Part shown: positions 235 through 12,988 of the stretch, in pieces
How positions within the stretch are numbered: the first letter of the stretch is position 1
Layout of the letters: the number at the start of each line of letters is the position of its first letter
Origin: a virus
Taxonomy: Duplodnaviria > Heunggongvirae > Uroviricota > Caudoviricetes
Reading direction: 5' to 3' (one strand)
IMG/VR virus record: IMGVR_UViG_2778261465_000007
Length of the DNA: 12,988 nucleotides
Position numbers and translations under genes: made by a program
The notes under the pieces: model-generated
Database searches by the model: none
Told to the model about the DNA's origin: nothing
The model's input: the letters and a program-made list of their open reading frames with translations, nothing else

Positions 235-399
235 TATAATAAACTTACTTTTTTATCATTTTTCCACTTTAACAACATTTTGCTCCACTTTTCCACGACC
301 AAACAACTTGAAATCTGGTTAAAATAACACGCAACACTATTCTTCTTCCTTGAGTCCGCCCGGAACTCGAAAAACAAACCGAGTTAAAGCCATTTTTCA

Positions 400-413
400 C
401 AAAATCGATTTTG
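400..413. promoter_or_regulatory. 14-bp perfect palindrome CAAAATCGATTTTG in the AT-rich 316-bp intergenic region upstream of pin; candidate operator or recombinase-binding site
   Basis: Exact dyad symmetry read directly from the sequence; function unknown. Confidence 0.3.
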
Positions 414-482
414 GGTCTCACCAAAATTACGGGGTTGCATACGCATTCGTTTATTTTCGAACGTGTACATACAAATATGCAC

Positions 483-512
483 AAAAATAATCATAATTAT
501 TTTCTGAGATGC
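483..512 (+). repeat. direct repeat copy 1: AAAAATAATC - 12 nt - TGAGATGC, ending 38 nt upstream of the pin ATG
   Basis: Exact 10-mer (483-492) and exact 8-mer (505-512) shared with copy 2 at 1141-1164. Confidence 0.5.
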
Positions 513-550
513 ATTATGATATGAACACCAATTTCGTATAGAGTCTCACT

Positions 551-1141
551 ATGTCTCGAATTTTTGCTTACTGTCGGATATCAACGCTGGATCAGACCAC
601 CGAAAATCAACGCCGGGAAATCGAAAGTGCAGGTTTTAAAATCAAACCTCAGCAAATAATCGAAGAACACATTAGCGGCTCAGCAGCAACCAGTGAGCGT
701 CCTGGTTTTAACCGGTTGCTTGCTCGCCTGAAATGTGGTGATCAATTGATTGTGACAAAACTGGATCGCCTTGGTTGTAATGCAATGGATATCAGGAAAA
801 CAGTGGAACAACTGACCGAAACAGGTATCAGAGTGCATTGCTTAGCATTGGGTGGCATTGACCTGACCAGTCCAACAGGAAAAATGATGATGCAAGTAAT
901 TTCAGCAGTCGCTGAATTTGAACGAGACCTTTTACTTGAACGCACTCATTCCGGGATAGTAAGAGCCCGCGGCGCAGGGAAACGTTTTGGTCGACCACCT
1001 GTGTTAAATGAAGAACAGAAACAGGTGGTATTCGAACGAATTAAGTCAGGTGTAAGTATAAGTGCCATTGCCCGGGAATTCAAAACCTCGCGGCAAACCA
1101 TTTTAAGAGCCAAAGCAAAACTTCAGACACCTGACATATAA
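551..1141 (+). CDS. pinR: Pin-type serine recombinase / DNA invertase (196 aa)
   Basis: N-terminal catalytic motif YCRISTLDQ (serine nucleophile), resolvase/invertase core (LDRLGCN, GRPP) and C-terminal helix-turn-helix ([18 protein letters not shown]); 196-aa length and sequence match my recollection of PinR/PinQ; convergent with tfa as in Rac. Confidence 0.9.
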
Positions 1142-1164
1142 AAAATAATCTCGGTGTGAGATGC
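1141..1164 (+). repeat. direct repeat copy 2: AAAAATAATC - 6 nt - TGAGATGC, starting at the last base of the pin stop codon; contains inverted repeat ATCTC-GGTGT-GAGAT (1148-1162)
   Basis: Exact 10-mer (1141-1150) and 8-mer (1157-1164) shared with copy 1. Confidence 0.5.
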
Positions 1165-1238
1165 TTTACGTCTTCCAAGCCCCCTTCCTTGCCGTAAATG
1201 GAAAGATACATCTAATTATAGAATTTATATGTTTTACC

Positions 1239-1814
1239 CTACGGCAGTGCTGGCCATTCAATATCCTGTGCAGTTGACGTATCAACACGGTTCAGCAATA
1301 CCCGATACTTTTTCCATGCTTCCAGCAACGAGATTTCTTCCTCCGTTGCAATTTCCAGATCTGCAGCATCCTGAAGCGGCGCAATATGCTCACTGGCTAC
1401 CTGCATCAGGTTGTTTTTTGTTTCTTCCGCCTCCCGGATCCGGAACAGTTTTTCTGCTTCCGTATCCTTCACCCAGGCTGTGCCGTTCCACTTCTGAAAC
1501 TCCCCTTCCGGCGATAACCAGGTAACATTTTCCGGTAACGGACCGAGTTCAGAAATAAATAACGCGTCGCCGGAAGCCACGTCATAAACCGTTTTACCCC
1601 GATGATCTTCAACGAGATGCCACGATGACTCATCACTGTTGAAAACAGCCACGAAGCCAGCCGGAATATCTGGCGGTGCAATATCGGTACTGTTTGCTGG
1701 CAGACCTGTATGAGGCGGAATATATGCATCACCTTCACCAATAAATTCATTAGTTCCGGCCAGCAGATTATAAATTTTTATGGTCCGTGGTTGTTCACTC
1801 ATTCTGAATGCCAT
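1239..1814 (-). CDS. tfaR: tail fibre assembly protein Tfa (191 aa)
   Basis: Translation [24 protein letters not shown]...DIEWPALP is typical of lambdoid Tfa; GAGG Shine-Dalgarno 8 nt upstream; start overlaps the stop of the upstream fibre remnant (TAATG). Confidence 0.85.
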
Positions 1815-1954
1815 TATGCAAGCCTCACAATATAGTTAAATGCGATGTTTTTGACGGTGTTTTCCGCGTTACCAGCAGCGTTAACGGTGATGGTGTGTCC
1901 ATGTGAACCAATCGCAACGGAGTGCGTGTGTGCACCAATAACCATCGCCAAATC
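1814..1954 (-). pseudogene. side tail fibre (Stf) C-terminal remnant, 46 codons, in-frame stop immediately upstream
   Basis: Minus-strand frame reads [46 protein letters not shown] then TAA overlapping the tfa ATG; the HTH...[15 protein letters not shown] ending is the conserved C-terminus of lambdoid side tail fibres; in-frame TAA at 1955-1957 and no upstream fibre coding sequence before the tape measure stop at 2026. Confidence 0.7.
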
Positions 1955-2025
1955 TTACAGTTTTTATCGATGGTTTATTTTCTGTTTTCATTCCATCCTC
2001 TGGTAACCAGTGAAATTCTTCCGTA

Positions 2026-5000
2026 TTAGCCACTTAACATTCCCCCATCACGTCGCATATTTAACAGATTGCCCTGCACCCGCTGATCAACCATCCCCAT
2101 AAGTGCTTTTATTGCCTGAGGGCCAATCTCTCCATTCTGGCCGTCATTTTGAATAGTGATTTGGTATACAGGGGCATAGGTAATATCTCCGCCTCCATTA
2201 CCACTTTTACTATTAATAGCTCTGACACCAAGAGAACCATCGGAAGTTCGTGTTAATGGCATAATGGCTTCCGGACCAGCCTCACCAAAAACACCAGCCC
2301 CTCTTGCAAAAGCAAAAAATTGCGGGGAATCATAAATACCGTTCGAATACGTGTTCAATGACGGAGACTCATAAACACCGCCCTTTGCATTCGGAATAAA
2401 TTTACTAATAGCACTCCCGATAGTTCCTAAAATCCCCCCAGAAGAACTGTTACTAATGCTGTCGAAAATCCCAGTAATTGAAGCCTTTAATGCTATTCGA
2501 CTAAGATCCGAAATCACGGAAGTAGCGAAAGAACGAAAATTTGCCTTGCCTGTCGTGACAAAATCACCCAGCGCATCGGTCATTCCATCAAACATCTGAG
2601 TCGTGGTTGATTTTATCTGCTCACTGATATCCTTAGTGTCATCCAGCCAGTTATTGAATCCCTGGGAGGCACCACTAACCCAGTCTCCTGCCTGAATATC
2701 GAGCTGCTCGTTTTTCTGTCTGACAATTTCTTTTTCTCGTTCCAGAGCATCATTCAGAGCCTGCATTTTCTCCTGAAAAACATGATTTGACATCCCACGG
2801 GATTTATCTGCATAGTCACGTTCAAGTTGCAGACGCTGATTGTTATATTCACGTTCAATCCGCAGTAATTCCTGCTGGCGTTGCTGATTTTTATCGCCAA
2901 CCCCATAACCAGCAATCTGAATATCATACCCCTGTTGACGATTATCAATCGAAGCCTGCAATGAATCACGCCATGCAGCTATTTCGGCGGATTCCTTGAT
3001 TAGCCTGTTATTTTTTTCAATCGCAACATTTTTCTCCATCAACGCGGTTATTTCTTCCCGGTGTAAGAGAAGCGATTTCTGATCCTGGGTTAATTTCGAT
3101 GACGGTCGTGACTCCAGGTCGGCAATCTGCTGACGCCACTTAACCAGTTCCTGTTCAGAGGAACTTAATTTAACGGTTAATTCAGTTTGTGAACTTAGTA
3201 ACGCATTCTGTTGATTCAGATGATCAATCATTCGTTGGGCAGCATCATCCGAATAACCTTTCGCCTTTGGTTGCTTTGGATCTTTATAACGCTCATTTAT
3301 TTGAGCGATAAAATTATTATATTCTTCCTTTGAATACTGACTCTTTAGCTTTTCCAGTTTTGCAAGTTCACTAGCTCTCTGCTGCTCCCGGGTCTGATAT
3401 TGTTTTGAAAAGGCATCTGCTCTCTGTCTGAGTTCAATTCCTTCCTGTTGTCGCTTGTTGTAATCGTTTATTGATGAATTTAGGACGTCCTGAGCAATTT
3501 TTTCTGCTTGAAGTACGCCCAATTGCTGCTTTAATCGTGCCAGCCTTTTATTTTGAGCTCCGCCATCTCCAATGCCACCTAACCCGAAAACTCCGGGTCG
3601 GGTATTTTTTTCTATTTCATCAATTTGACGGAGAACATCTGAGATTTTTTGATCAAGGGAGGCCTCACGGCCAATGTCCAGCATGGAATCCCATGCCCAT
3701 TTTGCGGAGTCTGCGACAGCTTTCCATGCAGTCTCAAGATAACCAAGATTTTCTTTAATCTGGTTGGTGCGCTGGATCATTGAGGATGAGTATGCTTCTG
3801 TCGCAATGCGGGCGGCCTCCTGCTGGTTCCCTTCATCCTGTAGCGCCTTAATCTGGTTATAAGTCGCAATTGTCAGAAAATGGTACTGATCATTAAGTTT
3901 TGATATGGCACTGACAGGATCCTTTGCAATTTCATTGAAGTCATTAACCAGTTGTTCGGTTGATATTCCTGTTACTTCGCTCGTTTTTACTATCGCTGTC
4001 GTCACTTGCTCCAGCGAACTGCTCGCTACCTTTCCCGAACGCACAAGCTGGTTTAATACTGCCGCCGCAGCGCCAGTTGTCGAATCAGCCGCATTCCCGG
4101 CACGTTGAGCTATATCGGCCAATTGCCCGCTGGTTGTCCCCAACTGATTTCCGGTAAGAATAAGAGATTTATTAAATTCGTCCTGCTCCTGAGAGCCTTT
4201 ATAGTAAGCCAGTCCTAAGACCCCAACGGCTGCTGCGGCCAGGGTAAAAGGATTAAGTAATCCCAGCACATAAGAACCTACACCTTTGATCGCCGGGCCA
4301 ATCCCACCGAACATATCTTTTAGCTGGCCGCCCTGCTGCATTAACACCATAAATGGCGACTGACCAGTGGACAACCCAACAACAATATCCGTCATTTGTG
4401 CAGGCAACATGCGCATAGCAAAAGCCGTTTGTTTTGCCGACATTCCGGTTTTGCTTAATTGTGATTGAGTAACCTCAAGCTCACTCCGCATAGCACGAAG
4501 TTTTCCAGAAAGCTCCTCATACATTTCAGGAGAAAGCATCCCCTTAGCTTTTGCTTCATTGAGCTGTTTCTGTTGTTCTACCAGACGATTAAAAGCAGTT
4601 CCGACAGGATCAAGTTGAGCAATCAGACGTTGCAAAGCAACAACCTGTTCATCATGCGCTTTTGCTGCTTCTCGCTCTGCCTGAGCCTCTCCGGTAAGCT
4701 CTCGCCGTGTTTCCTGTATTTTTCGGCTATAATTCTCAAACTGAGAACCATTTATTTTCCCGGATGCAAACGCAGCATTAAGTTCATCATGCTGTTGTTC
4801 AAGATTTCTTAGCGCCGCAGCCAGAGGGTCGATCTTGTCCAGCATTCTTTGAAAGGCCTGAGCCTGCGCTTCCTGCTGGGCGGCAGCAAGTTTTCCGGCC
4901 TTCTCGGCTTCTCTCTGCGCTTGCGCAACCCCGCTCAATTCCTCTGTGGTTTCATTAAGTTTACGGACAAGAAATTCATATTCTTCTTTATCAATAAGCC

Positions 5001-5259
5001 CTTTATCGAAAAATTTCTTTAATTCAGAATAGCGTCGACCGACAGTATCAATTGCGGCACCAACTGGATCAATAGCTGCTTTTAATTTTGCGAGCGCGTT
5101 CTTCTCATCTTCTGTTGCCTTAGTCACTTTCCCTGCGCTATTTGCAGCAGTTTCCCCAGCCTGCGTCATTTTGACTAATGAGGAGGTCAGATTGTCAGCA
5201 TTATTTTTCGCTCCAGTGCTATCAATAATTATTGCGAGACGCGAGGTTTGCTCTGCCAT
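2026..5259 (-). CDS. tail tape measure protein, lambda gpH family (1077 aa)
   Basis: Long coiled-coil-rich ORF with three N-terminal ~75-aa repeats, a central hydrophobic segment and the lambda-H-type C-terminal region ([22 protein letters not shown]); AGGAG 9 nt upstream of the ATG; directly follows the G/G-T chaperone genes. Confidence 0.85.
4450..5094 (-). repeat. three diverged tandem ~75-aa (about 225-nt) repeats in the N-terminal part of the tape measure protein
   Basis: Protein-level periodicity: [18 protein letters not shown] (aa 63-80), [18 protein letters not shown] (aa 143-160), [18 protein letters not shown] (aa 216-233), each followed by a ...ELSG/ELTG/ELEV segment. Confidence 0.5.
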
Positions 5260-5279
5260 TTATTAAAACTCCTGACAAC

Positions 5280-5304
5280 AAAAAAACCACCGCGAAGTGG
5301 GTTT
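5280..5304 (-). terminator. weak hairpin (CCAC-loop-GUGG) followed by U7 on the minus-strand transcript, about 20 nt upstream of the tape measure ATG; possible attenuator
   Basis: Minus-strand RNA AAACCCACUUCGCGGUGGUUUUUUU; the stem is only 4-5 bp, so weak. Confidence 0.25.
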
Positions 5305-5424
5305 CAGGCGACATAATAGTAGATATAGCGATTACGAGGCCACGCAATGCTTTTCTCCAGGAGCATCATCGATTTAATTAAAGACACCATCACATCTCTG
5401 TAACAGAGTGTACGTAATTAACAA

Positions 5425-6194
5425 CTACACACACTGCTCCTGAAAATACTGGTCATCCAGTGCAAAGATCACTGCTTCAAATTCATCGCGCTCAATCAAT
5501 ACCGGATGAGTGGCTAAATATTCATTTATCTCTGTCAGAGATAAAGGCAAAGGCACCCCAGCCATTCCAGCATAACGTCGGGCACGGGATATTACCGAAT
5601 AGGCGTACAACAACTCCTTAAGCACCGGGTCTATTTCTGGTTCCGGTATCGGTGGCAACCTGAGTTTTTCTCGCTTCCATCTTGCCTTTTCCCCCCTTTC
5701 TCCCCCGAACTCCGATAACCACCGCTGGGCAGCTATGGCTTTTTTATCGTATCCTGCTTCTGCTGCTCTTTACCCTGGGCGATGCTGGCTGCTTCTGCAA
5801 GGATCTGCCAGTACAACTCTGGATTCTGCTTAAGCAGCGCGATCCCTCGTTCTGCCGTATATTCCAGTGCAACCTCAACACCATTAACCAGTTCACCAAC
5901 CCCTTTCCAGTCTTTCAGCAGATAACGAGCGGCATTATCAATGAGTAAATCATCAACAGAATCCACCTCGGAAACCTTTGAAATATCAAACTCCTTCGTT
6001 CCGACGTGCAAACTGGCATCCATTTTCTCAATGTGGCGACGGATTAATGCATTACGGGAGCGATACTGATCGTTATCGCTGCTTGCCACCAACAGTTTTA
6101 ACCCGTCTACAGGTTTTAAGTCCTTCATTGGCGTAAACCAGCGTTCTCCACCAATGATAATTTTCTGATTAAGAATAAACATCCATAACCTCAT
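5425..6194 (-). CDS. tail assembly chaperone G-T fusion produced by programmed -1 ribosomal frameshift
   Basis: The frame of ORF 5425..5658 stays open upstream to overlap the 3' end of G; slippery heptamer A-AAA-AAG sits 2 codons before the G stop; position between major tail gene and tape measure gene matches the conserved G/GT arrangement. Confidence 0.55.
5733..6194 (-). CDS. tail assembly chaperone G (153 aa; alternative start at Met5, 6182)
   Basis: ORF ending ...QDTIKKP-TAG directly upstream of the tape measure gene; GGGGGA (or GAGG for Met5) Shine-Dalgarno; carries the frameshift site. Confidence 0.7.
   Translation of the reverse strand: MRLWMFILNQKIIIGGERWFTPMKDLKPVDGLKLLVASSDNDQYRSRNALIRRHIEKMDASLHVGTKEFDISKVSEVDSVDDLLIDNAARYLLKDWKGVGELVNGVEVALEYTAERGIALLKQNPELYWQILAEAASIAQGKEQQKQDTIKKP
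5739..5745 (-). other. -1 programmed ribosomal frameshift slippery site A-AAA-AAG (minus-strand mRNA)
   Basis: mRNA reads ...GAU ACG AUA AAA AAG CCA UAG; after a -1 slip the frame continues as AIAAQRWLSEFGG... into the T segment ending at 5425. Confidence 0.6.
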
Positions 6195-6242
6195 TCAATG
6201 CGTCCCCCTGTAGGGCAGTACCACAGGAGAAATAACGGAAAA

Positions 6243-7205
6243 TCAACTAATCGCCTCAGCACTGGCTTTTGCGATCACGGCAGCCGGGGAATTTTTTTTT
6301 CTGGTTATCGTAGGTGCTTCATCTGCTGCGGTAATGCTCAATTGAACCTGGATAATGTCGCTATTACCCCCATCAGGCCATTCACCTGACACCTGAACCT
6401 TCGGGAAACTGAAAGTGTATGCCCCCTCTCCATTCGAAAGCGTGAAGCTGAACGGAACTGTTTCTCCAGTCAGTGTTTTACTCCAGATTTCCCACGCGGC
6501 TTTAGACCATGAAAGCGTCACCGTACCGGACGGTGTAAAAGTAGTCGGAATATTTGCTCCTGCATAAGGCGAGCCAGTCCCGATACAACGCTGTGTCTGG
6601 AGTTTGTTATCGAACTGAATATCAAAACTGTCGATACAAAAACCGTTACCTCCGGCAACACCATTCAGGCTTACTGCTGAAACCTCCTTAAACGAATAAC
6701 GTAGCTTTCCTGCACTATCCACAGGTTCGCCTTTGATAAAATTCGTATCATCGGCCTTTGATTCCCAGTCCAGTCCGGCAAAGGTTACGGTCGCTGTAAT
6801 ATCGCCGTCGTTAGGGATCTGCATTTTCCATGAGCCAACCTGCGCTCCTCTGACGACAGAGGCAATTCCGACATCGGACGCATAGGTCGCCAGAGAAAAT
6901 GTTATTCGCTCATTCCCCATTGTCAGAGAATCGCCTGACCATTCCGCGCCGAAACAGGATGCAAGAAAATCATCATGTTGACCCCAGCGAAATTTGGTAC
7001 CAACATCACCGCCGACATCCACAGTGCCAGGCGTCGCCCCCTGAGCCATCCGGGAGCCACCAATCTCATTATTTTCGCCTTTATTCTGGGTGGGTTTTAC
7101 TTCCCAGCTTGTGCGTTTTAATAAACTCCAGTCACCACTTGCTGGCGTAGTGCCTGCAACCGTCTCCCGGATAAATGCCGAGATAACCTTTGCACCTGAA
7201 CTCAC
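6243..7205 (-). CDS. major tail (tube) protein, 320 aa, with a putative Ig-like C-terminal extension (inferred from size, about 75 aa longer than lambda gpV); GTG start
   Basis: Gene immediately upstream of the G/GT chaperones; GTG preceded by AGGAGG at a 5-nt spacing. Confidence 0.65.
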   Translation of the reverse strand: MSSGAKVISAFIRETVAGTTPASGDWSLLKRTSWEVKPTQNKGENNEIGGSRMAQGATPGTVDVGGDVGTKFRWGQHDDFLASCFGAEWSGDSLTMGNERITFSLATYASDVGIASVVRGAQVGSWKMQIPNDGDITATVTFAGLDWESKADDTNFIKGEPVDSAGKLRYSFKEVSAVSLNGVAGGNGFCIDSFDIQFDNKLQTQRCIGTGSPYAGANIPTTFTPSGTVTLSWSKAAWEIWSKTLTGETVPFSFTLSNGEGAYTFSFPKVQVSGEWPDGGNSDIIQVQLSITAADEAPTITRKKNSPAAVIAKASAEAIS

Positions 7206-7231
7206 AGGAGCCTCCTATGTCATTAATTGCG

Positions 7232-7624
7232 CTAGAGCGCGCGATATGGAATTTGAAGATTAAGCTGGAACCAGCCATTCTTTTCGCCAACGGCTATTGA
7301 GGAAACAGCCTGGTAACTGAGACGATCGTCATCCTGAAACTCAAACAGTTCCCGCAATTTATCGGCTGTCTCAGTAATGAGTTTTGAACCAGAACCTGCG
7401 GGGACAAATAACTGAATAATGATTATCCCCGTGCGATAAACAACCGGCCCCGCGCCAATTTCATTAACTCCAGCCTGCCCGGGAATATTACTTAACCGCG
7501 CCCAGATTAACTTACCGGAAGGATCGAACGTTGGCCCGTTCGGATACAATACGTCTTTTCCATCAATAATCGTCTGTGCCGTCATTCTGGAAATAACCGT
7601 ATTTCTGATTTCAGTAAACTTCAT
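7232..7624 (-). CDS. head-tail joining / tail terminator-like protein (130 aa)
   Basis: Small ORF between the HK97-gp10-like gene and the major tail gene; ATGA start/stop overlap with the upstream gene; function from position only. Confidence 0.45.
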   Translation of the reverse strand: MKFTEIRNTVISRMTAQTIIDGKDVLYPNGPTFDPSGKLIWARLSNIPGQAGVNEIGAGPVVYRTGIIIIQLFVPAGSGSKLITETADKLRELFEFQDDDRLSYQAVSSIAVGEKNGWFQLNLQIPYRAL

Positions 7625-8001
7625 TTGTAAGCCTGTAAAACACCATGAAAAGCGTTGGCATACACGCCAGTTGGCGCTTGTTGTGAATGACCGTTTTCAA
7701 GAGCCTCTGCATAAGGAAGGTTATTCTGGATATAAATAACCCCGTAATTTGCAGCTTTCGAAATAACCCCGATCCCACGCTGAACAGCAATCGTACCGTT
7801 CGGATCCACGTTATCAGATATACCAAAATCGGGATGCTGTAACGACACCAGGTTGTTATTTCTGAAACGTCCGGTATCAACCGGAGCAGCAATATCAATA
7901 GCAGTAAGAATCTGCATAGCGATGTAGCGAATCTTCAGCCCTACATCTTCCTCAATCATCCCGGCAAATATTGACGGTTCTATATCCCATGCCTTTGCCA
8001 T
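7621..8001 (-). CDS. tail completion protein, HK97 gp10-like (126 aa)
   Basis: VDTGRFRNN motif resembles the DTG-x-LR signature of the HK97 gp10 family; start directly follows the upstream stop (TAA-ATG). Confidence 0.5.
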   Translation of the reverse strand: MAKAWDIEPSIFAGMIEEDVGLKIRYIAMQILTAIDIAAPVDTGRFRNNNLVSLQHPDFGISDNVDPNGTIAVQRGIGVISKAANYGVIYIQNNLPYAEALENGHSQQAPTGVYANAFHGVLQAYK

Positions 8002-8385
8002 TTACGCTCTCCTTAACTGGATAGAGTAAACTGATGCGGAAGGATCTACACTTGCTGTAATTACCTCGTATCGTTGTAACTGCCTTGATACAGGATCATA
8101 AATCTCAATAATATGGTCGACAGCTGGTTTATCCGTAACCTCGCATACCAGAGCGGTTAATTTAAGGTCACCATGCAAAATATTAATCCCATCAATTCTG
8201 CCCAGCTTATAACGTGTCAACACGCCTCGCCCGGTATAGATTGCGGTGGATTCGCCGCCAGTTTCCGTCACAGGATCCCAGTGCCGGTGCGTAACGTAAG
8301 AACCAGAAAAATCACTCACGGCGTCCGCTAAATCCTCATCAAAAGCAGCGGCAACCTCTGACTGAATCTCTTCACGAAGCCCCAT
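8002..8385 (-). CDS. head-tail joining (head closure/adaptor) protein (127 aa)
   Basis: Position in the coupled head-tail cluster; TAATG overlap with the upstream gene; no diagnostic motif recognised. Confidence 0.45.
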   Translation of the reverse strand: MGLREEIQSEVAAAFDEDLADAVSDFSGSYVTHRHWDPVTETGGESTAIYTGRGVLTRYKLGRIDGINILHGDLKLTALVCEVTDKPAVDHIIEIYDPVSRQLQRYEVITASVDPSASVYSIQLRRA

Positions 8386-8780
8386 TATCCCCCCCTCACA
8401 ACCCTGACTTGTGAGCGACTAAGTCCGTACGGTTTCAGCAGTGCTATCGCAAGCTGTAAATCGGGTTCAAGCAATGCAGTGCTGTTTGCTGGCAACTCAG
8501 AAAATGATTTCGATACACTGACCCCGTCAGCCGACACGGCTTTACTGATAACAACGCCAGAATCATTTTTCTGCTGAAACAACTTACCGAATGAGGCAAT
8601 TCTGGCTGCATATGCTCCCGCAAGTTTTACCTCTTCCGGAATACGGGATGGGTTAATTTTCAGGTTGAAGCCATTAAGCCAGGCATTAGCCATTAAAACA
8701 GCTTTATTTTTAGCGTTCTCACTCGTCCAGGCGTTCCCAAACGCATTATCAACGTCATCACAGGTCACGTAAGTGATCAT
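8385..8780 (-). CDS. head-tail connector protein, gp6-like (131 aa)
   Basis: First gene after the capsid gene; N-terminal MITYVTCDDV...AWL pattern resembles the gp6-like head-tail connector family; AGGGG Shine-Dalgarno. Confidence 0.5.
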   Translation of the reverse strand: MITYVTCDDVDNAFGNAWTSENAKNKAVLMANAWLNGFNLKINPSRIPEEVKLAGAYAARIASFGKLFQQKNDSGVVISKAVSADGVSVSKSFSELPANSTALLEPDLQLAIALLKPYGLSRSQVRVVRGG

Positions 8781-8783
8781 GTG

Positions 8784-8960
8784 TTACCCCTGAGTTTTCC
8801 AGCCCATAGCCTTCCAGTTGTCAACTTCATCAGGATGAACATTAGCGATAGTTGGTGCGCCGGGAAACATCTGATAATCGGTCACCATAACCACTAACTC
8901 AATTTGCGTTTTTTGTGCGGCTTCACGCTGTGCTCTTTGCTCTTTAGTTAATCCGGCCAT
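8784..8960 (-). CDS. unannotated small ORF, 58 aa (MAGLTKEQRAQREAAQKTQIELVVMVTDYQMFPGAPTIANVHPDEVDNWKAMGWKTQG), translationally coupled to the connector gene
   Basis: ATG at 8960..8958 preceded by a GGGGGG run; TAA at 8786..8784, 3 nt before the connector ATG; absent from the ORF track, apparently because it is under the size cut-off. Confidence 0.4.
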   Translation of the reverse strand: MAGLTKEQRAQREAAQKTQIELVVMVTDYQMFPGAPTIANVHPDEVDNWKAMGWKTQG

Positions 8961-8970
8961 ATGCCCCCCA

Positions 8971-8997
8971 TTAAAAATGGGGCCGAAGCCCCGTTTG
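8971..8997 (-). terminator. intrinsic terminator/attenuator: GGGGC-UUCG-GCCCC hairpin followed by AUUUUUAA (minus strand), about 100 nt downstream of the capsid gene
   Basis: 5-bp all-GC stem closing a UUCG tetraloop (8979-8992) with a run of 5 U immediately 3' on the minus-strand transcript; on the plus strand the same hairpin is followed by GUUUGAAUGUUU. Confidence 0.5.
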
Positions 8998-9092
8998 AAT
9001 GTTTAACCAAGAATCAGACAACCATGTGCCGGCTTCACTGATGAAACACCCCATGCCAGTCCAACTTCATAGCGCACCTGGCGATACTGACG

Positions 9093-10142
9093 TTACAGTG
9101 CAATCTGGAACGTAATCCCTGAAATCGGGTCCGTAACATTCATTACATCATCAGCATTATCGCCACCTTCCGGCATTGCCGGAGTACGGGATGCCAGCAG
9201 AAACGCGTTGCGATCAAACGCCATATTTGCAGTAAAGGCCCCAACAACTGTGATGGCAGTATCATCGGCCAGATCCTGACGCAGTCCGGGCGCTGCAAGA
9301 GTAATCAGATTGCTGGTCGCTGCTGCCACAACATACTGATTCGGATCACCAGCGAACGTAACAATCTGACCTGCAGAAATACTCCCCGAACCAGTATCAA
9401 TGGAAATAAGAACATCGCCTTCTTTTTTCTCTCCATTCACGAGATAACCAGTTGCAGCAACCTTTGGCGCTCGTTTCACACCTGCCGAACTGTGAATATT
9501 GAATCCCTCCAGACGCCCCAACACGCCCTCACGCAGTAGCTGTTCAGTGCCGGATTCATTCACTTTAAACAATACAGACTGTTTTCCGCGCAAATTAGCA
9601 ATGGCAGTGGAGCCAAGCACCATCTGCAGATCGGTTGTCGGTGCGCCGTTATCCTCCAGAACCTGACGAGCCAGAGCAGCATCAGAAAGATCATCTTTAA
9701 CACCAAACGGCGTTGTCCCTGCGGTTCCCACGGCGCGGGAAGCACCGAAATACAACGCACCAAGATCAGCCTCAACCTCGTTTGCAAGGGCGCGAAAAGC
9801 CTGCTTGAACTGATCAGCCAGAATGGTGTTGTAAGTCCCTGAAGGGCCAAGAGCCAGTTGTTCTTCACCATTCCATTTAACCGGTGCCATTTTGGATTTA
9901 GTAATTTTTACATCAACAGTGCCAATATTTTGATCACCGGTATTCGGAGCTGACGGCCCCGGTACGATATCTTCGGTTTTCGCCTCAGGCGCAACTGGCG
10001 CGGTTACCGTCTGATCTTTTGCTGCGGCGTCAGCTTTTGCGTTTTTTGCTACCGCAGGGATAAAACCTACCTGCTCACGGGATACAACATCCAGGGCGGT
10101 ATAAATAGTCGGGATCAACCCGGTCAGGGTATTTCCAGCCAT
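9093..10142 (-). CDS. putative major capsid protein (349 aa from ATG 10142; the ORF-track N-terminal extension to 10235 is rejected)
   Basis: First large gene of the virion block, directly upstream of the head-tail joining genes; AAGGAA Shine-Dalgarno 8 nt upstream of MAGNTLTGL...; assignment from position and size, not a recognised motif. Confidence 0.55.
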   Translation of the reverse strand: MAGNTLTGLIPTIYTALDVVSREQVGFIPAVAKNAKADAAAKDQTVTAPVAPEAKTEDIVPGPSAPNTGDQNIGTVDVKITKSKMAPVKWNGEEQLALGPSGTYNTILADQFKQAFRALANEVEADLGALYFGASRAVGTAGTTPFGVKDDLSDAALARQVLEDNGAPTTDLQMVLGSTAIANLRGKQSVLFKVNESGTEQLLREGVLGRLEGFNIHSSAGVKRAPKVAATGYLVNGEKKEGDVLISIDTGSGSISAGQIVTFAGDPNQYVVAAATSNLITLAAPGLRQDLADDTAITVVGAFTANMAFDRNAFLLASRTPAMPEGGDNADDVMNVTDPISGITFQIAL

Positions 10143-10240
10143 AATTAAATATTCCTTAAAAATTTGCGTAATTGTGAATAGATGGAGTAATGAGCTATCC
10201 AGCCCTGACACCAGCTCCCATCCGGAAGCTGACAAATGTG

Positions 10241-10477
10241 TTAATCAACGATTGTGACCGGAACAGAATCCATTTTGAGCATTTCAGCCGCCATAACACG
10301 ACCGTGACCCGCAATAATTTCGCCCTTTTCGTCAATCAGCACCGGATTAGTCCAGCCGAATTGCTTAATACTTTCTACCAGTTGTGCCACCTGCTCAGTA
10401 CTGTGCGTCCTGGCGTTGTGCGCATACGGTGACAATTCTTGTAATGGGCGATAGACTATCTTTAATTTCTCGCTCAT
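10241..10477 (-). CDS. ynaK: ParB-like nuclease-domain protein (78 aa), probably a truncated domain
   Basis: ParB/Srx N-terminal-domain signature (PYAHNARTHS ... IIAGHGR); sits between trkG and the structural genes as ynaK does in Rac. Confidence 0.55.
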   Translation of the reverse strand: MSEKLKIVYRPLQELSPYAHNARTHSTEQVAQLVESIKQFGWTNPVLIDEKGEIIAGHGRVMAAEMLKMDSVPVTIVD

Positions 10478-10496
10478 ACAGCCTTGCTTTATGAAT

Positions 10497-10528
10497 AAAA
10501 CGCACCCCAGCAGCCAGTGCTACTGGGG
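10497..10528 (-). terminator. putative intrinsic terminator downstream of trkG: CCCCAG...CUGGGG hairpin with inner stem, then UGCGUUUUAUU (minus strand)
   Basis: 6-bp GC-rich outer stem (10505-10510 / 10523-10528) plus 3-bp inner stem and tetraloop; the U-tract starts 4 nt after the stem, so only moderate. Confidence 0.35.
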
Positions 10529-10614
10529 ACGGAGGTGTTGCTGGTAAAGTTAGGTATTGGATCAATGAGTGAGTCAACATAATATTAAACTCACAATTAT
10601 AAATCAGCCATATA

Positions 10615-12072
10615 TTAGGAGCGCCAAAAAAAACCTGAAAACAATATAATAACAGGATAAATTTCAAGGCGACCAAGAATCATAGCTATGCACATTAAAC
10701 ATTTTGCAATGTCATTAAGCACTCCGAATGACGATGCAGTAGCCCCAAAACCTAATCCCATATTATTAATACATGCAGCCACTGTTGCAAATGATGTAAG
10801 AAAATCATATCCCATACCATTTAACACCAGTATAAAAAACACCGTAAAGAGAGTATAAAGAAAAAAGAAACTCCATACAGACCTCATTACACGATCTGTA
10901 ACTATCTTCCCTCCTACATTTACACTCAACAACGCTCTGGGATGAGAAAGCTGATTTATCTCGTGTTTGCTTTGTTTGAAAAGTATAAGAAATCGAAGTG
11001 ACTTAATTCCACCACAAGTTGAACCTATACATCCCCCAAAGAAACTTGACAACAGCAAAAACACTATCGTGTGCGTGGGCCAACTTGCATAATCCTGCGT
11101 AGCTAAACCATTATCAGTGAGCATGGAGCTGGCAAGAAAAAACGAATGAATAAAACTTCCATGCAAGTCATACATACCTATATGCCAGACCTGGAAAGAG
11201 GTAACAATGATCACCCCTAAGGCTATTAACAGAAAGAAACGAAGTTCAATATCTCTGATTAAAGGTTTTATCGTTTTCCTGCTAATAACAATATACCAAA
11301 GAGTGAAGTTGAAAGCCGATAGCAGGGAAAAAGAACCAGCCACCAGCTCAACCAAATAGTTATTAAAATATCCGATACTCTCGCTATGAGTTGAGAAACC
11401 ACCAAGCGAAACTGTGGAAATCCCGTGACAAATAGCATCAAACAAAGGCATTCCTGCAAGTCTATAACAGACAATACAAGCAATACCTAATAAAGAATAA
11501 GTTATCCACAGTGTCCGTGACGTATCGGCCAGGCGGGGAGTGAGTTTGTCATCCTTAAATGGCCCCGGCATTTCTGACTGATAAAGCTTTGCACCACCAA
11601 TACCCAATAATGGCAATACAGCAACCGCCAGAACAATAACTCCTAAACCACCTATAAAATTTAACTGTGACCGATAGTACAAATATGCCCGAGGTAATGA
11701 ACTAACATCATCAATTACAGTTGCTCCTGTTGTTGTTATTCCAGAAACCCCTTCAAACAGAGCATCAATGAACGTTAAATTAAGTTCTGAGTCAATCCAT
11801 AAAGGGAATGCACTAATAACAGAAAACAAAATCCAAAACATTACAATTATAATAAACCCATCACGGGTACGTAATTGAATGCCAGATTTCTTAGTTGTAT
11901 ACCACGCTCCGCCACCAATGCAAAAAAATATAACGAAAGTTATAAAGAAAACAAACAGGCTTTTTTCTTTATAAAACAATGCTACAACCATTGGTGGCAA
12001 CATTGAAAGACTATAGAGCCAAACCAGGAACCCACACATATGAGTAACAACTCTTACATGAGATGTATTCAT
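10615..12072 (-). CDS. trkG: TrkH/TrkG-family potassium uptake membrane protein (485 aa from ATG 12072; alternative TTG at 12090 has a better Shine-Dalgarno)
   Basis: Polytopic membrane protein with repeated glycine-rich selectivity-filter-like motifs (GITTTGATV, GCIGSTCGGIK, NMGLGFG); markedly AT-rich compared with flanking phage genes; position right after Rz/Rz1 as trkG in Rac. Confidence 0.9.
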   Translation of the reverse strand: MNTSHVRVVTHMCGFLVWLYSLSMLPPMVVALFYKEKSLFVFFITFVIFFCIGGGAWYTTKKSGIQLRTRDGFIIIVMFWILFSVISAFPLWIDSELNLTFIDALFEGVSGITTTGATVIDDVSSLPRAYLYYRSQLNFIGGLGVIVLAVAVLPLLGIGGAKLYQSEMPGPFKDDKLTPRLADTSRTLWITYSLLGIACIVCYRLAGMPLFDAICHGISTVSLGGFSTHSESIGYFNNYLVELVAGSFSLLSAFNFTLWYIVISRKTIKPLIRDIELRFFLLIALGVIIVTSFQVWHIGMYDLHGSFIHSFFLASSMLTDNGLATQDYASWPTHTIVFLLLSSFFGGCIGSTCGGIKSLRFLILFKQSKHEINQLSHPRALLSVNVGGKIVTDRVMRSVWSFFFLYTLFTVFFILVLNGMGYDFLTSFATVAACINNMGLGFGATASSFGVLNDIAKCLMCIAMILGRLEIYPVIILFSGFFWRS

Positions 12073-12089
12073 ATCTAAATATTCTTTCA

Positions 12090-12123
12090 ATTATAACCAC
12101 CTTGCTGCAATATTATGATTATA
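12090..12123 (-). promoter_or_regulatory. candidate sigma70 promoter region for trkG: two TATAAT hexamers on the minus strand (12095..12090 and 12123..12118) in AT-rich DNA
   Basis: Perfect -10 hexamers read from the sequence; no good -35 at canonical spacing, so weak. Confidence 0.3.
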
Positions 12124-12209
12124 CTGTATAAAATTTAACTCCTCTTAGATCTTACTTCACTGTTCCTTATGAAACAATCATCAAAATGAATCATATTGTA
12201 GTTAAGATT

Positions 12210-12674
12210 TTACTTTAAACACTGCTCGGTTATGTATTGCTGAGCACCTTCAAGTTGGGCCTGCATCATTACCAGTCGTTCCCGGAGGGTGAAATAATCC
12301 CGTTCAGCGGTGTCTGCCAGTCGGGAGGAGGCTGCATTATCCACGCCGGAGGCGGTGGTGGCTTCACGCACTGACTGACAGACTGCTTTGATGTGCAACC
12401 GACGACGACCAGCGGCAACATCATCACGCAGAGCATCATTTTCAGCTTTCGCATCAGCTAACTCCTTCGTGTATTTTGCATCGAGCGCAGCAACATCACG
12501 CTGACGCATCTGCATGTCAGTAATTGCCGCGTTCGCCAGCTTCAGTTCTCTGGCATTTTTGTCGCGCTGGGCTTTGTAGGTAATGGCGTTATCACGGTAA
12601 TGATTAACAGCCCATGACAGGCAGACGATGATGCAGATAACCAGAGCGGAGATAATCGCGGTTACTCTGTTCAT
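12210..12674 (-). CDS. Rz i-spanin, lambda Rz-like (154 aa from ATG 12674)
   Basis: Near-identical to my recollection of lambda Rz ([54 protein letters not shown]...); ATGA overlap with the endolysin stop. Confidence 0.85.
12269..12454 (-). CDS. Rz1 o-spanin lipoprotein embedded in the +1 frame of Rz (61 aa)
   Basis: Signal peptide with lipobox LVVVGC and proline-rich mature region ([17 protein letters not shown]), as in lambda Rz1; wholly contained within Rz. Confidence 0.8.
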
Positions 12675-12988
12675 TGCTGACCCCACAAACAGATTTCACG
12701 CTCAATCTCACGACGAGTCATGAGACCTTTCCATTGCTTACCGCCAGCATATGTCCAGCGACGTAGCTGATCACATGCGCCTTTGATATCGCCCTGGTTT
12801 ATTTTGCGAAGAAGCGTCGATGTTCTGAAATTGCCAGCACCCACGTTGTAAACGAATGAGTAAAGAGCGCCGCGCGTTGTTTCCGGTATATCGACTTTGA
12901 TGTACGGGTTAATTTGTCTGGCGACCGTGGCAAGGTCTTTATTCAAGAGTGTTTTGCATTCTGCTTTGGTATACGTTTTACCGAGCAT
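12671..12988 (-). CDS. endolysin, T4/P21-type lysozyme (glycoside hydrolase family 24), C-terminal 105 codons only; 5' end lies beyond the window
   Basis: Translation ...[66 protein letters not shown] matches my recollection of P21-type lysozymes (RrrD-like); directly upstream of Rz. Confidence 0.8.

Follow-up and report, generated by a model that had tools for sequence, protein, structure and literature searches.

The stretch of DNA analysed here (the window, 12,988 nucleotides in all) represents the late-gene half of a lambdoid Escherichia coli prophage of the Rac type, from which a single 7.4-kb deletion took the DNA-packaging and head-assembly genes, and in which the major capsid gene is a nonsense pseudogene with an incomplete reading frame. 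We regard it with high confidence as an ordinary Rac-type prophage that is decaying piecemeal, by a capsid nonsense mutation and, most likely after it, two deletions at microhomologies, with the remaining genes surviving by virtue of recency. Direct observation covers the deletions with their breakpoints, as well as the nonsense mutation and its presence in relatives without the deletions.

Gene content of the window

The structural genes of the window all lie on the minus strand (Table 1), along which the order is Rz/Rz1 (stop at 12210), trkG, a 78-codon ORF with a ParB_N domain and the capsid gene (ATG at 10142). The Pfam families PF06085 (Rz1) and PF03245 were matched on contigs identical to the window, and trkG is followed by a terminator-like hairpin (10505-10528, from a consensus scan only). 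ORFs, Pfam and PHROG agree that there is no terminase, portal or scaffold gene in the window, including the interval between the ParB_N ORF and the capsid gene; in other words, only trkG and a 78-aa ParB-like fragment separate the lysis cassette from the capsid gene, as an earlier note on this DNA had stated. Terminase and portal genes are likewise not to be found immediately beyond the window in the same operon, a location that the earlier note had left open, since the window is cut off at its right end within the lysozyme gene, which precedes the structural genes in the direction of transcription, and the DNA to the left, as seen in a contig with the identical junction, leads into ynaM and the part of the chromosome towards uspF.

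A pair of tail assembly chaperone genes separates the tube gene from that of the tape measure. Of this pair, the upstream one (G, 5733-6194) is the homologue of K-12 ydaY and the other (T) is an extension in the -1 frame, open to 5425. A slippery heptamer for a -1 shift, A_AAA_AAG, stands at 5739-5745, near the end of the G ORF, the heptamer and its frame both being read directly. The position and layout of the pair thus fit a programmed -1 frameshift of the lambda G/GT type, which is predicted here from sequence.

Table 1. Features of the window, with the joins found in other strains given in coordinates of L005 (the LHM10-1 locus)
Feature	Position	Strand	Basis or remark
ydfK	1-234	plus	
pinR	551-1141	plus	
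tfaR	1239-1814		
stfR stub	1814-1940		flanks deletion junction A
Deletion junction A, 3-bp microhomology ATA	1938-1940		BLAST segments, L005 annotation
gpM-like gene stub	1941-2033		flanks deletion junction A
Tape measure protein, 1077 aa, full length	2026-5259	minus	PHROG 24; length as in LHM10-1 and VE-T9
Tail assembly chaperone pair	5425-6194	minus	PHROG 313; PF23812 on the T part
Tail tube protein	6243-7205	minus	PF18906, E 7e-32
Tail terminator	7232-7624	minus	PF13554, PHROG 179
Tail completion / Neck1	7621-8001	minus	PHROG 169, E 2.8e-55
Head closure Hc1	8002-8385	minus	PHROG 161, E 1.5e-28
Head-tail adaptor Ad1	8385-8780	minus	PHROG 493, E 7e-49
Conserved small head-region gene, 58 aa	8784-8960	minus	PHROG 1514
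Terminator-like GC hairpin and T-run, closely following the capsid gene's native stop (9003)	8979-8992	minus	consensus scan only
Major capsid gene, P22-coat-type HK97 fold, natively 379 codons	9003-10142	minus	pseudogene in the window
Native scaffold-capsid spacer, 98 nt	10143-10240	minus	AAGGA ribosome-binding site kept
Last four scaffold (DUF6651) codons, TIVD, and stop	10241-10257	minus	translations of the window ORF and the L005 scaffold
ParB_N ORF, 78 codons	10241-10477	minus	
Deletion junction B, 3-bp microhomology TGA (plus strand)	10255-10257		ParB joined to scaffold end
ParB/Srx-like (ynaK) 5' remnant	10258-10477	minus	codons 1-74 out of 263 kept
trkG, potassium transporter cargo gene, low G+C	10615-12072	minus	
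Rz spanin, end of lysis cassette, with Rz1 embedded at 12269-12454	12210-12674	minus	relatives' annotation
Lysozyme, 3' part	12671-12988	minus	cut by the window end
ParB-to-capsid join, ECCWS199	L005 23273 / 30612		
ParB-to-capsid join, CP66-6	L005 23170 / 30540		
ParB-to-capsid join, 2018-10-1CC and EC05	L005 23005 (left breakpoint)		

The capsid protein and its nonsense mutation

The capsid ORF encodes a P22-coat-type major capsid protein with the HK97 fold, which bears out the assignment made in the earlier note for the 349-aa product. In its 379-aa form, the protein matches the PHROG 283 major head protein over residues 3-379 (E 1.9e-135) and the P22 coat family PF11651 at 44.1 bits against a cut-off of 24, and it is 75% identical to the major head protein of phage HK639. 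Searches of PDB sequences, whether by single protein or by profile, gave no match to the capsid, and among the PDB comparisons it was the fold search alone that matched. In this regard, an AF2 model of the 379-aa form (pLDDT 82, pTM 0.81) has an HK97-type fold with an inserted domain, as in the solved coat proteins, and the top 17 Foldseek matches to it are all coat chains of P22 gp5, Sf6 or CUS-3, the best being procapsid and virion chains of P22 gp5, followed by Sf6 and CUS-3 (E 1e-16 to 1e-14, TM up to 0.72; for the P22 chains, E 1e-16 to 1e-15 and TM 0.64-0.72). This model drew on added diversity from a second homologue search, seeded with a marine phage capsid protein of 48% identity; a model from a shallow alignment (20 sequences of at least 82% identity) had a pLDDT of 33 and was discarded.

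The native capsid gene is, however, longer than the ORF of the window. In the relatives the coding sequence corresponds to window positions 9003-10142 and gives a product of 379 aa (WP_000918487.1), whereas the window has TAA at 9093-9095 on the minus strand where the relatives have TAT; a substitution at 9093 converts Tyr350 to a stop, such that the 349-codon ORF is the 379-codon gene without its 30 conserved C-terminal residues. This premature stop accounts both for the gap of 132 nt that separates the 349-codon ORF from the next gene and for the placement of the terminator-like hairpin. A 61-nt probe over codon 350 is matched exactly in one of the 744 complete E. coli genomes that carry the capsid segment, namely VE-T9, whose capsid copy is called a pseudogene with an internal stop by PGAP. 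The other 743 are one base off the window within the probe, and tyrosine is encoded in those loci that were read directly.

The importance of the lost residues can be gauged from homologues. Almost all of the 240 listed are of 376-390 aa, the exceptions being a few partial or fused products, and those from phages, even at identities as low as 40%, can be aligned as far as the C-terminus (residues 373-379). Moreover, Y350, Y353, R354, Y358, E359, W364, G365 and G379 are invariant in 70 homologues of about 48% identity, and in the model the lost region contributes to three confidently predicted beta-strands (344-352, 355-368 and 374-378). Conservation and predicted structure together suggest that the 349-aa protein would be non-functional.

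The two deletions

When aligned by BLAST to the LHM10-1 locus (L005), the window falls into three collinear pieces (1-1940, 1938-10257 and 10255-12829), with an overlap of 3 bp at each junction. The collinearity to the right of the capsid start extends through the spacer as far as window position 10257. A 380-codon ORF with a TTG start also runs through this spacer, but this TTG is not where the gene begins, which by the annotation of relatives corresponds to window position 10142.

At junction B, 7,420 bp are absent in comparison with LHM10-1 (L005 23321-30740) and 7,421 bp in comparison with VE-T9, the ParB gene of the latter being without a 1-bp frameshift. The genes lost are most of ParB, two small genes, TerS, TerL, the portal gene, the gene of the Mu-F-like head protein and the scaffold gene, as was to be expected from the earlier note, which had posited a deletion of the packaging and procapsid-assembly genes. 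Its list of missing genes holds for terminase, portal and scaffold; it had also included a protease, and here it does not hold, as a prohead protease is neither annotated nor recognisable in the modules of LHM10-1, VE-T9 or HK639, and no protease was therefore lost from the window. What remains of the ParB/Srx-like gene matches Pfam ParB_N (E 2.4e-6) and PHROG 620 (E 5.9e-38) and was aligned to the full-length 263-aa gene of VE-T9. The tail of the scaffold gene is fused in frame to ParB codons 1-74, and it is from this tail that the 78-codon ORF has its stop. Apart from the microhomology, comparison of the two parental breakpoint regions gave no longer homology or repeats, only chance 7-9-mers and a weak match of 22 nt (E 0.24).

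The exact ParB-capsid junction occurs in none of the 5,426 complete E. coli genomes searched, nor does the whole arrangement of the window. An exact-protein look-up of the 78-aa fusion ORF nevertheless returned 11 draft or Logan contigs with the same junction, all 99.99-100% identical to the window. Among these, GCA_031682385.1 is 100% identical to window positions 241-12988, GCA_965179105.1 has one mismatch, and one Logan contig occurs in at least 20 samples. The junction and the fusion ORF are present in the assembly GCA_002485495.1 as well. The recurrence of the junction in independent, near-identical assemblies indicates that it is real and that it marks a clonal lineage.

At junction A, 9,706 bp (L005 5298-15003) are absent. 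The loss comprises the bulk of the gpM-like gene, which is the first tail-tip gene and stands where M does in lambda, then gpL, a C40 peptidase gene (gpK-like), the gpI-like tail assembly gene, gpJ, lom and the bulk of stfR.

Relatives and the prevalence of the module

The three segments of the window match annotated prophages at the Rac locus of E. coli at 99-100% DNA identity, and the Rac markers trkG, ynaK, ydaY, tfaR, pinR and ydfK/ynaE are present in Rac order. The window itself includes no chromosomal flank. One locus with the identical junction (L016) runs further left in collinearity with VE-T9, past ydfK and ynaM, and reaches a point some 50 bp short of uspF. Of the two flanks of the Rac locus, ttcA and uspF/ynaM, the one seen in L016 is the latter; near-identical modules in other strains sit at the lambda attachment site.

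The full late region is kept in LHM10-1 (L005) and VE-T9 (L007). There the order runs from lysis, trkG, ParB/Srx, a 310-aa TAGT/GREB1-like gene, a 69-aa ORF, TerS, TerL and portal (DUF4055) through the Mu-F-like minor head protein, scaffold (DUF6651), P22-type capsid, connectors, tube, chaperones and tape measure to the tail tip (M, L, K, I, J), lom, stf/stfR, tfaR and pinR; the tail-tip genes of both are annotated as phage tail protein, minor tail protein L, C40 peptidase, tail assembly protein and gpJ. The module is common. In the 5,426 complete E. coli genomes the TerL type was found in 786 and the capsid segment in 744, many of these copies being at least 99% identical, and the 5' end of ynaK in 1,458; in other strains the segment from trkG and ParB through packaging to capsid is also found at the lambda attachment site (bio-ybhC). 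Among 638 strains of Escherichia and Shigella, the Rac locus is reported to be occupied by a prophage in 69% (PMC6379469).

Deletions of the same kind have occurred elsewhere. Three or more additional ParB-to-capsid deletions of independent origin are known from other E. coli strains (Table 1), each joined at a microhomology of 2-3 bp with no longer homology. A deletion hot spot might be read from the clustering of these junctions; this is unproven, since the query recovers only joins near the window's own. Lesions that would disable these genes are common in other strains, examples being a frameshift in the capsid gene of AH65, a stop in the tube gene of RX24, and a stop or frameshift in J in LHM10-1 and VE-T9. 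Records with identical capsids under names of the form 'Escherichia phage vB_EcoS-...' were set aside as evidence of an active module, as they are prophages predicted by PHASTER.

Order of events

The exact 349-aa product is found in four settings. It accompanies a complete packaging module, collinear with VE-T9, in locus L017; a deletion of 3.7 kb in L018 that begins in TerS and ends within the Mu-F-like gene, to which L019 adds a deletion in the connectors; one of 5.1 kb in L020 that extends from ParB to within the Mu-F-like gene; and the 7.4-kb deletion in the window. As the nonsense allele thus occurs both with the full module and with other deletions, it is most likely, on grounds of parsimony, that capsid was inactivated by the nonsense mutation before any of the deletions took place. 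Alternatively, recombination could have moved the allele from one prophage to another.

If the nonsense mutation did come first, then Tyr350 would have become a stop in a prophage with the full module, after which illegitimate recombination at a 3-bp microhomology would have joined ParB codon 74 to the very end of the scaffold gene, with the loss of 7.4 kb from ParB codon 75 onwards. Another such event, also at a 3-bp microhomology and also after the nonsense mutation, would have taken the 9.7 kb of tail-tip and fibre genes, and the sister lineages would have undergone their own, independent deletions. On the reading favoured here, the surviving 8.3-kb block keeps its frames, its overlaps and its frameshift site only because there has been too little time for further mutations. 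The decay suggested by this sequence of steps is one in which a point mutation in the capsid gene is followed by erosion of the packaging genes through microhomology deletions, whilst trkG, which is useful to the host, stays.

Recency, selection and other explanations

The earlier note had described the capsid-to-tape-measure genes as an intact, coupled operon with no internal stops and had offered either very recent deletion or retention under selection as the reason. Its tight overlaps between genes are indeed there, as is its preserved frameshift site, but the block is not intact, the capsid gene being cut by the TAA at codon 350. As to the two reasons, the block of 8,320 bp has only three base differences from LHM10-1 and four from VE-T9. 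Taken with the near-identity of the contigs that share the junction, so few differences indicate that the open frames reflect recency, as in the first of the note's two suggestions, rather than selection. An absence of selection on the block is therefore what we infer, on the evidence of sequence comparison.

It could be argued that the block has been kept as a domesticated device, tailocin-like or gene-transfer-agent-like, or as a set of parts used with a helper phage. Nine of its ten genes (all except capsid) have the same length as in the complete relatives, with overlaps and frameshift site preserved; the configuration is common to at least 11 contigs, one of them in at least 20 samples; and over a longer range dN/dS is about 0.3, as measured against the more distant RX24 (21 synonymous and 21 nonsynonymous differences). 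This last value reflects past constraint, which is expected from a history as a live phage, and is compatible with present constraint too. The T-frame segment was read off-frame in the calculation, which, as that segment is without differences, leaves the counts unaffected and shifts the site totals slightly; the counts against AH65 (one synonymous, nine nonsynonymous) are too small to interpret. Set against a domesticated device are the nonsense mutation in capsid and the absence of the portal, scaffold, terminase, tail tip and fibre genes. In P22 and lambda, assembly of a head requires the portal, the scaffold and a full coat protein, and a tail cannot be started without the tip complex. By analogy with these phages, loss of portal, scaffold and terminase together with truncation of the capsid would leave the element unable to build a head, and loss of the tail tip complex would leave it unable to build a tail, such that, unless a helper phage made good the losses, assembly of neither could start. 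A tailocin, moreover, would have tail tip or baseplate and fibre genes alongside tube and tape measure, whereas the window has lost M, L, K, I, J, lom and stf at junction A. Three or four differences in 8.3 kb allow no time for selection to be detected, the one change in the block that sets the window's lineage apart from all others compared is nonsynonymous (E58G in the 58-codon gene), and sharing among samples at 99.99-100% identity can be put down to clonal descent. Retention of the block as a selected device is thus very improbable, and the note's suggestion to this effect is not borne out.

Other readings are far less probable than recent, piecemeal decay. The remnant may act as a reservoir for homologous recombination, from which incoming phages of the Rac or HK639 type take genes for connectors, tail and tape measure while the host is under no selection to retain them, and the abundance of near-identical TerL and capsid segments, along with the presence of the module at bio-ybhC, indicative of exchange between prophages, is in keeping with this. 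Such a role, however, would be a consequence of the remnant and not an explanation of its structure, and nothing in the window bears on it; as an account of the window it is unlikely to a high degree. More improbable still, the 349-aa fragment could poison head assembly by a superinfecting Rac- or HK639-type phage when the late operon is switched on, in what would be prophage-encoded exclusion; if true, this might be the reason for the survival of the nonsense allele in several sub-lineages with different deletions, and neither the truncated allele nor the recurrent loss of the packaging genes beside it would then be neutral, but clonal inheritance accounts for the persistence more simply. That the junction is an artefact of assembly, with the packaging genes really present, has a probability close to negligible: the absence of the exact junction from all 5,426 complete genomes is the one thing that speaks for it, and against it stand the same junction and 78-aa fusion ORF in independent assemblies and Logan contigs, and the clean 3-bp microhomology of the join.

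Comparison with known systems

The window is an instance of an already understood kind of prophage decay, with no sign that the block has been kept for a purpose. In incomplete prophages the genes for replication, packaging and release are preferentially lost (Khan, Burmeister and Wahl 2020, PMC7744054), and the window is one more example of this pattern, with no difference of substance. Its value is modest, as a clean and datable example of the order of prophage decay, and it has little importance beyond annotation. In this latter respect, the capsid ORF is to be annotated as a pseudogene, the 78-codon ORF as a ParB'-'scaffold fusion remnant and the element as a doubly deleted Rac-type prophage, the useful correction being the pseudogene status of capsid, which most likely dates from before the loss of the packaging genes.

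Of the systems with which the window can be compared, the Rac prophage of K-12 has the same gene set in the same order (ydaY, ynaK, trkG, tfaR, pinR, ynaE/ydfK), and Rac-locus prophages of other strains have 99-100% DNA identity to the window for ydfK, pinR, tfaR, ydaY, the 5' end of ynaK, trkG and Rz. The difference from K-12 Rac lies in the deletions: in the window the truncated ynaK adjoins the capsid gene and the block from capsid to tape measure survives, whereas K-12 Rac presumably retains only fragments of that block. The K-12 gene ydaY corresponds to the window's tail assembly chaperone gene and not to its capsid gene. LHM10-1 and VE-T9 have synteny identical to that of the window from capsid to tape measure, and VE-T9 has the window's capsid nonsense allele and yet retains both of the regions that the window has lost. 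HK639, an isolated and sequenced phage, has the same order as the complete relatives, TerS, TerL, portal, head morphogenesis (MuF), scaffold and capsid. The coat proteins of P22 (gp5), Sf6 and CUS-3 resemble the window's capsid in fold, with a sequence identity of just 12-15%. As with the P22 coat, the capsid gene is natively accompanied by a separate scaffold gene and by no annotated or recognisable protease gene in the module; unlike it, the native protein has 379 aa rather than 430, belongs with a tail module of the siphovirus and not the podovirus type, and in the copy carried by the window is truncated at residue 349.

Repeated deletion between the ParB-like and capsid genes

The capsid gene has been joined to the ParB-like gene, or to trkG, by at least three more independent deletions in other E. 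coli strains (see table), with 2-3 bp of microhomology at each of these further joins. Breakpoint coordinates and frame arithmetic make P0004, an in-frame 507-aa ParB::capsid fusion protein, a candidate product of the CP66-6-type join. Some of the joins have one breakpoint in common, at 23005 or 30540 in the coordinates of L005, the complete relative from LHM10-1, and this sharing suggests either nested events or recombination between prophages. Within the nonsense-allele lineage, two different deletions (Logan contigs L018, L019 and L020) have a common left breakpoint at 24997 in the coordinates of L007, the complete relative from VE-T9, with right ends at 28662 and 30112 and a 9 bp overlap at one join. 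The common left end could reflect successive deletions from one site, or an insertion sequence since lost.

The complete relatives have the ParB/Srx gene at its full length of 263 aa; a 310-aa gene overlaps it, and the pair lies directly upstream of the terminase genes. The 310-aa gene, which PGAP names 'GREB1-related', matches Pfam PF20691 (TAGT), and the two may form a putative DNA-modification or packaging-associated pair. In many strains a 1-bp frameshift cuts the ParB gene down to the 'ynaK' remnant.

Coordinates of joins, gene regions and other features
Feature	Location	Strand	Remark
Further ParB/trkG-capsid joins	L001 15311; L010 10208; L011 9983-10009; L012 10043		other E. coli strains
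ParB/Srx + 310-aa gene region	L005 29245-30960 / L007 29245-30961		deleted from window
Terminator-like hairpin, strong	window 10505-10528	-	after trkG, before ParB remnant
Prophages at bio-ybhC	L002, L011, L012		E. coli H9Ecoli, 2018-10-1CC, EC05
Chimeric 50-codon ORF	window 1881-2033	-	from mechanical ORF list
Tail assembly chaperone G	window 5733-6194		K-12 ydaY

Tail genes

The first tail-tip gene, in the lambda M position, contributes its 31 initial codons to the chimeric ORF, which spans deletion junction A and continues in out-of-frame stfR 3' sequence. Chaperone G corresponds to K-12 ydaY (Pfam PF27119, Phage_YdaY); in the PGAP annotation it appears only as a 119-aa version with an internal start, and its -1 frameshift product is absent.

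trkG and exchange of the late region

The G+C content of trkG (0.32-0.41) is markedly below that of the structural block (0.44-0.52), as judged from the composition of window 10500-12250. Taken with the downstream hairpin, this composition fits an independently expressed cargo gene, and such a cargo role is the likeliest cause of the neighbourhood having persisted. The trkG-ParB-capsid region is also found in prophages at the lambda attachment site (bio-ybhC) rather than at the Rac locus, that of H9Ecoli retaining its packaging genes. This indicates that trkG and the late region are exchanged among lambdoid prophages.
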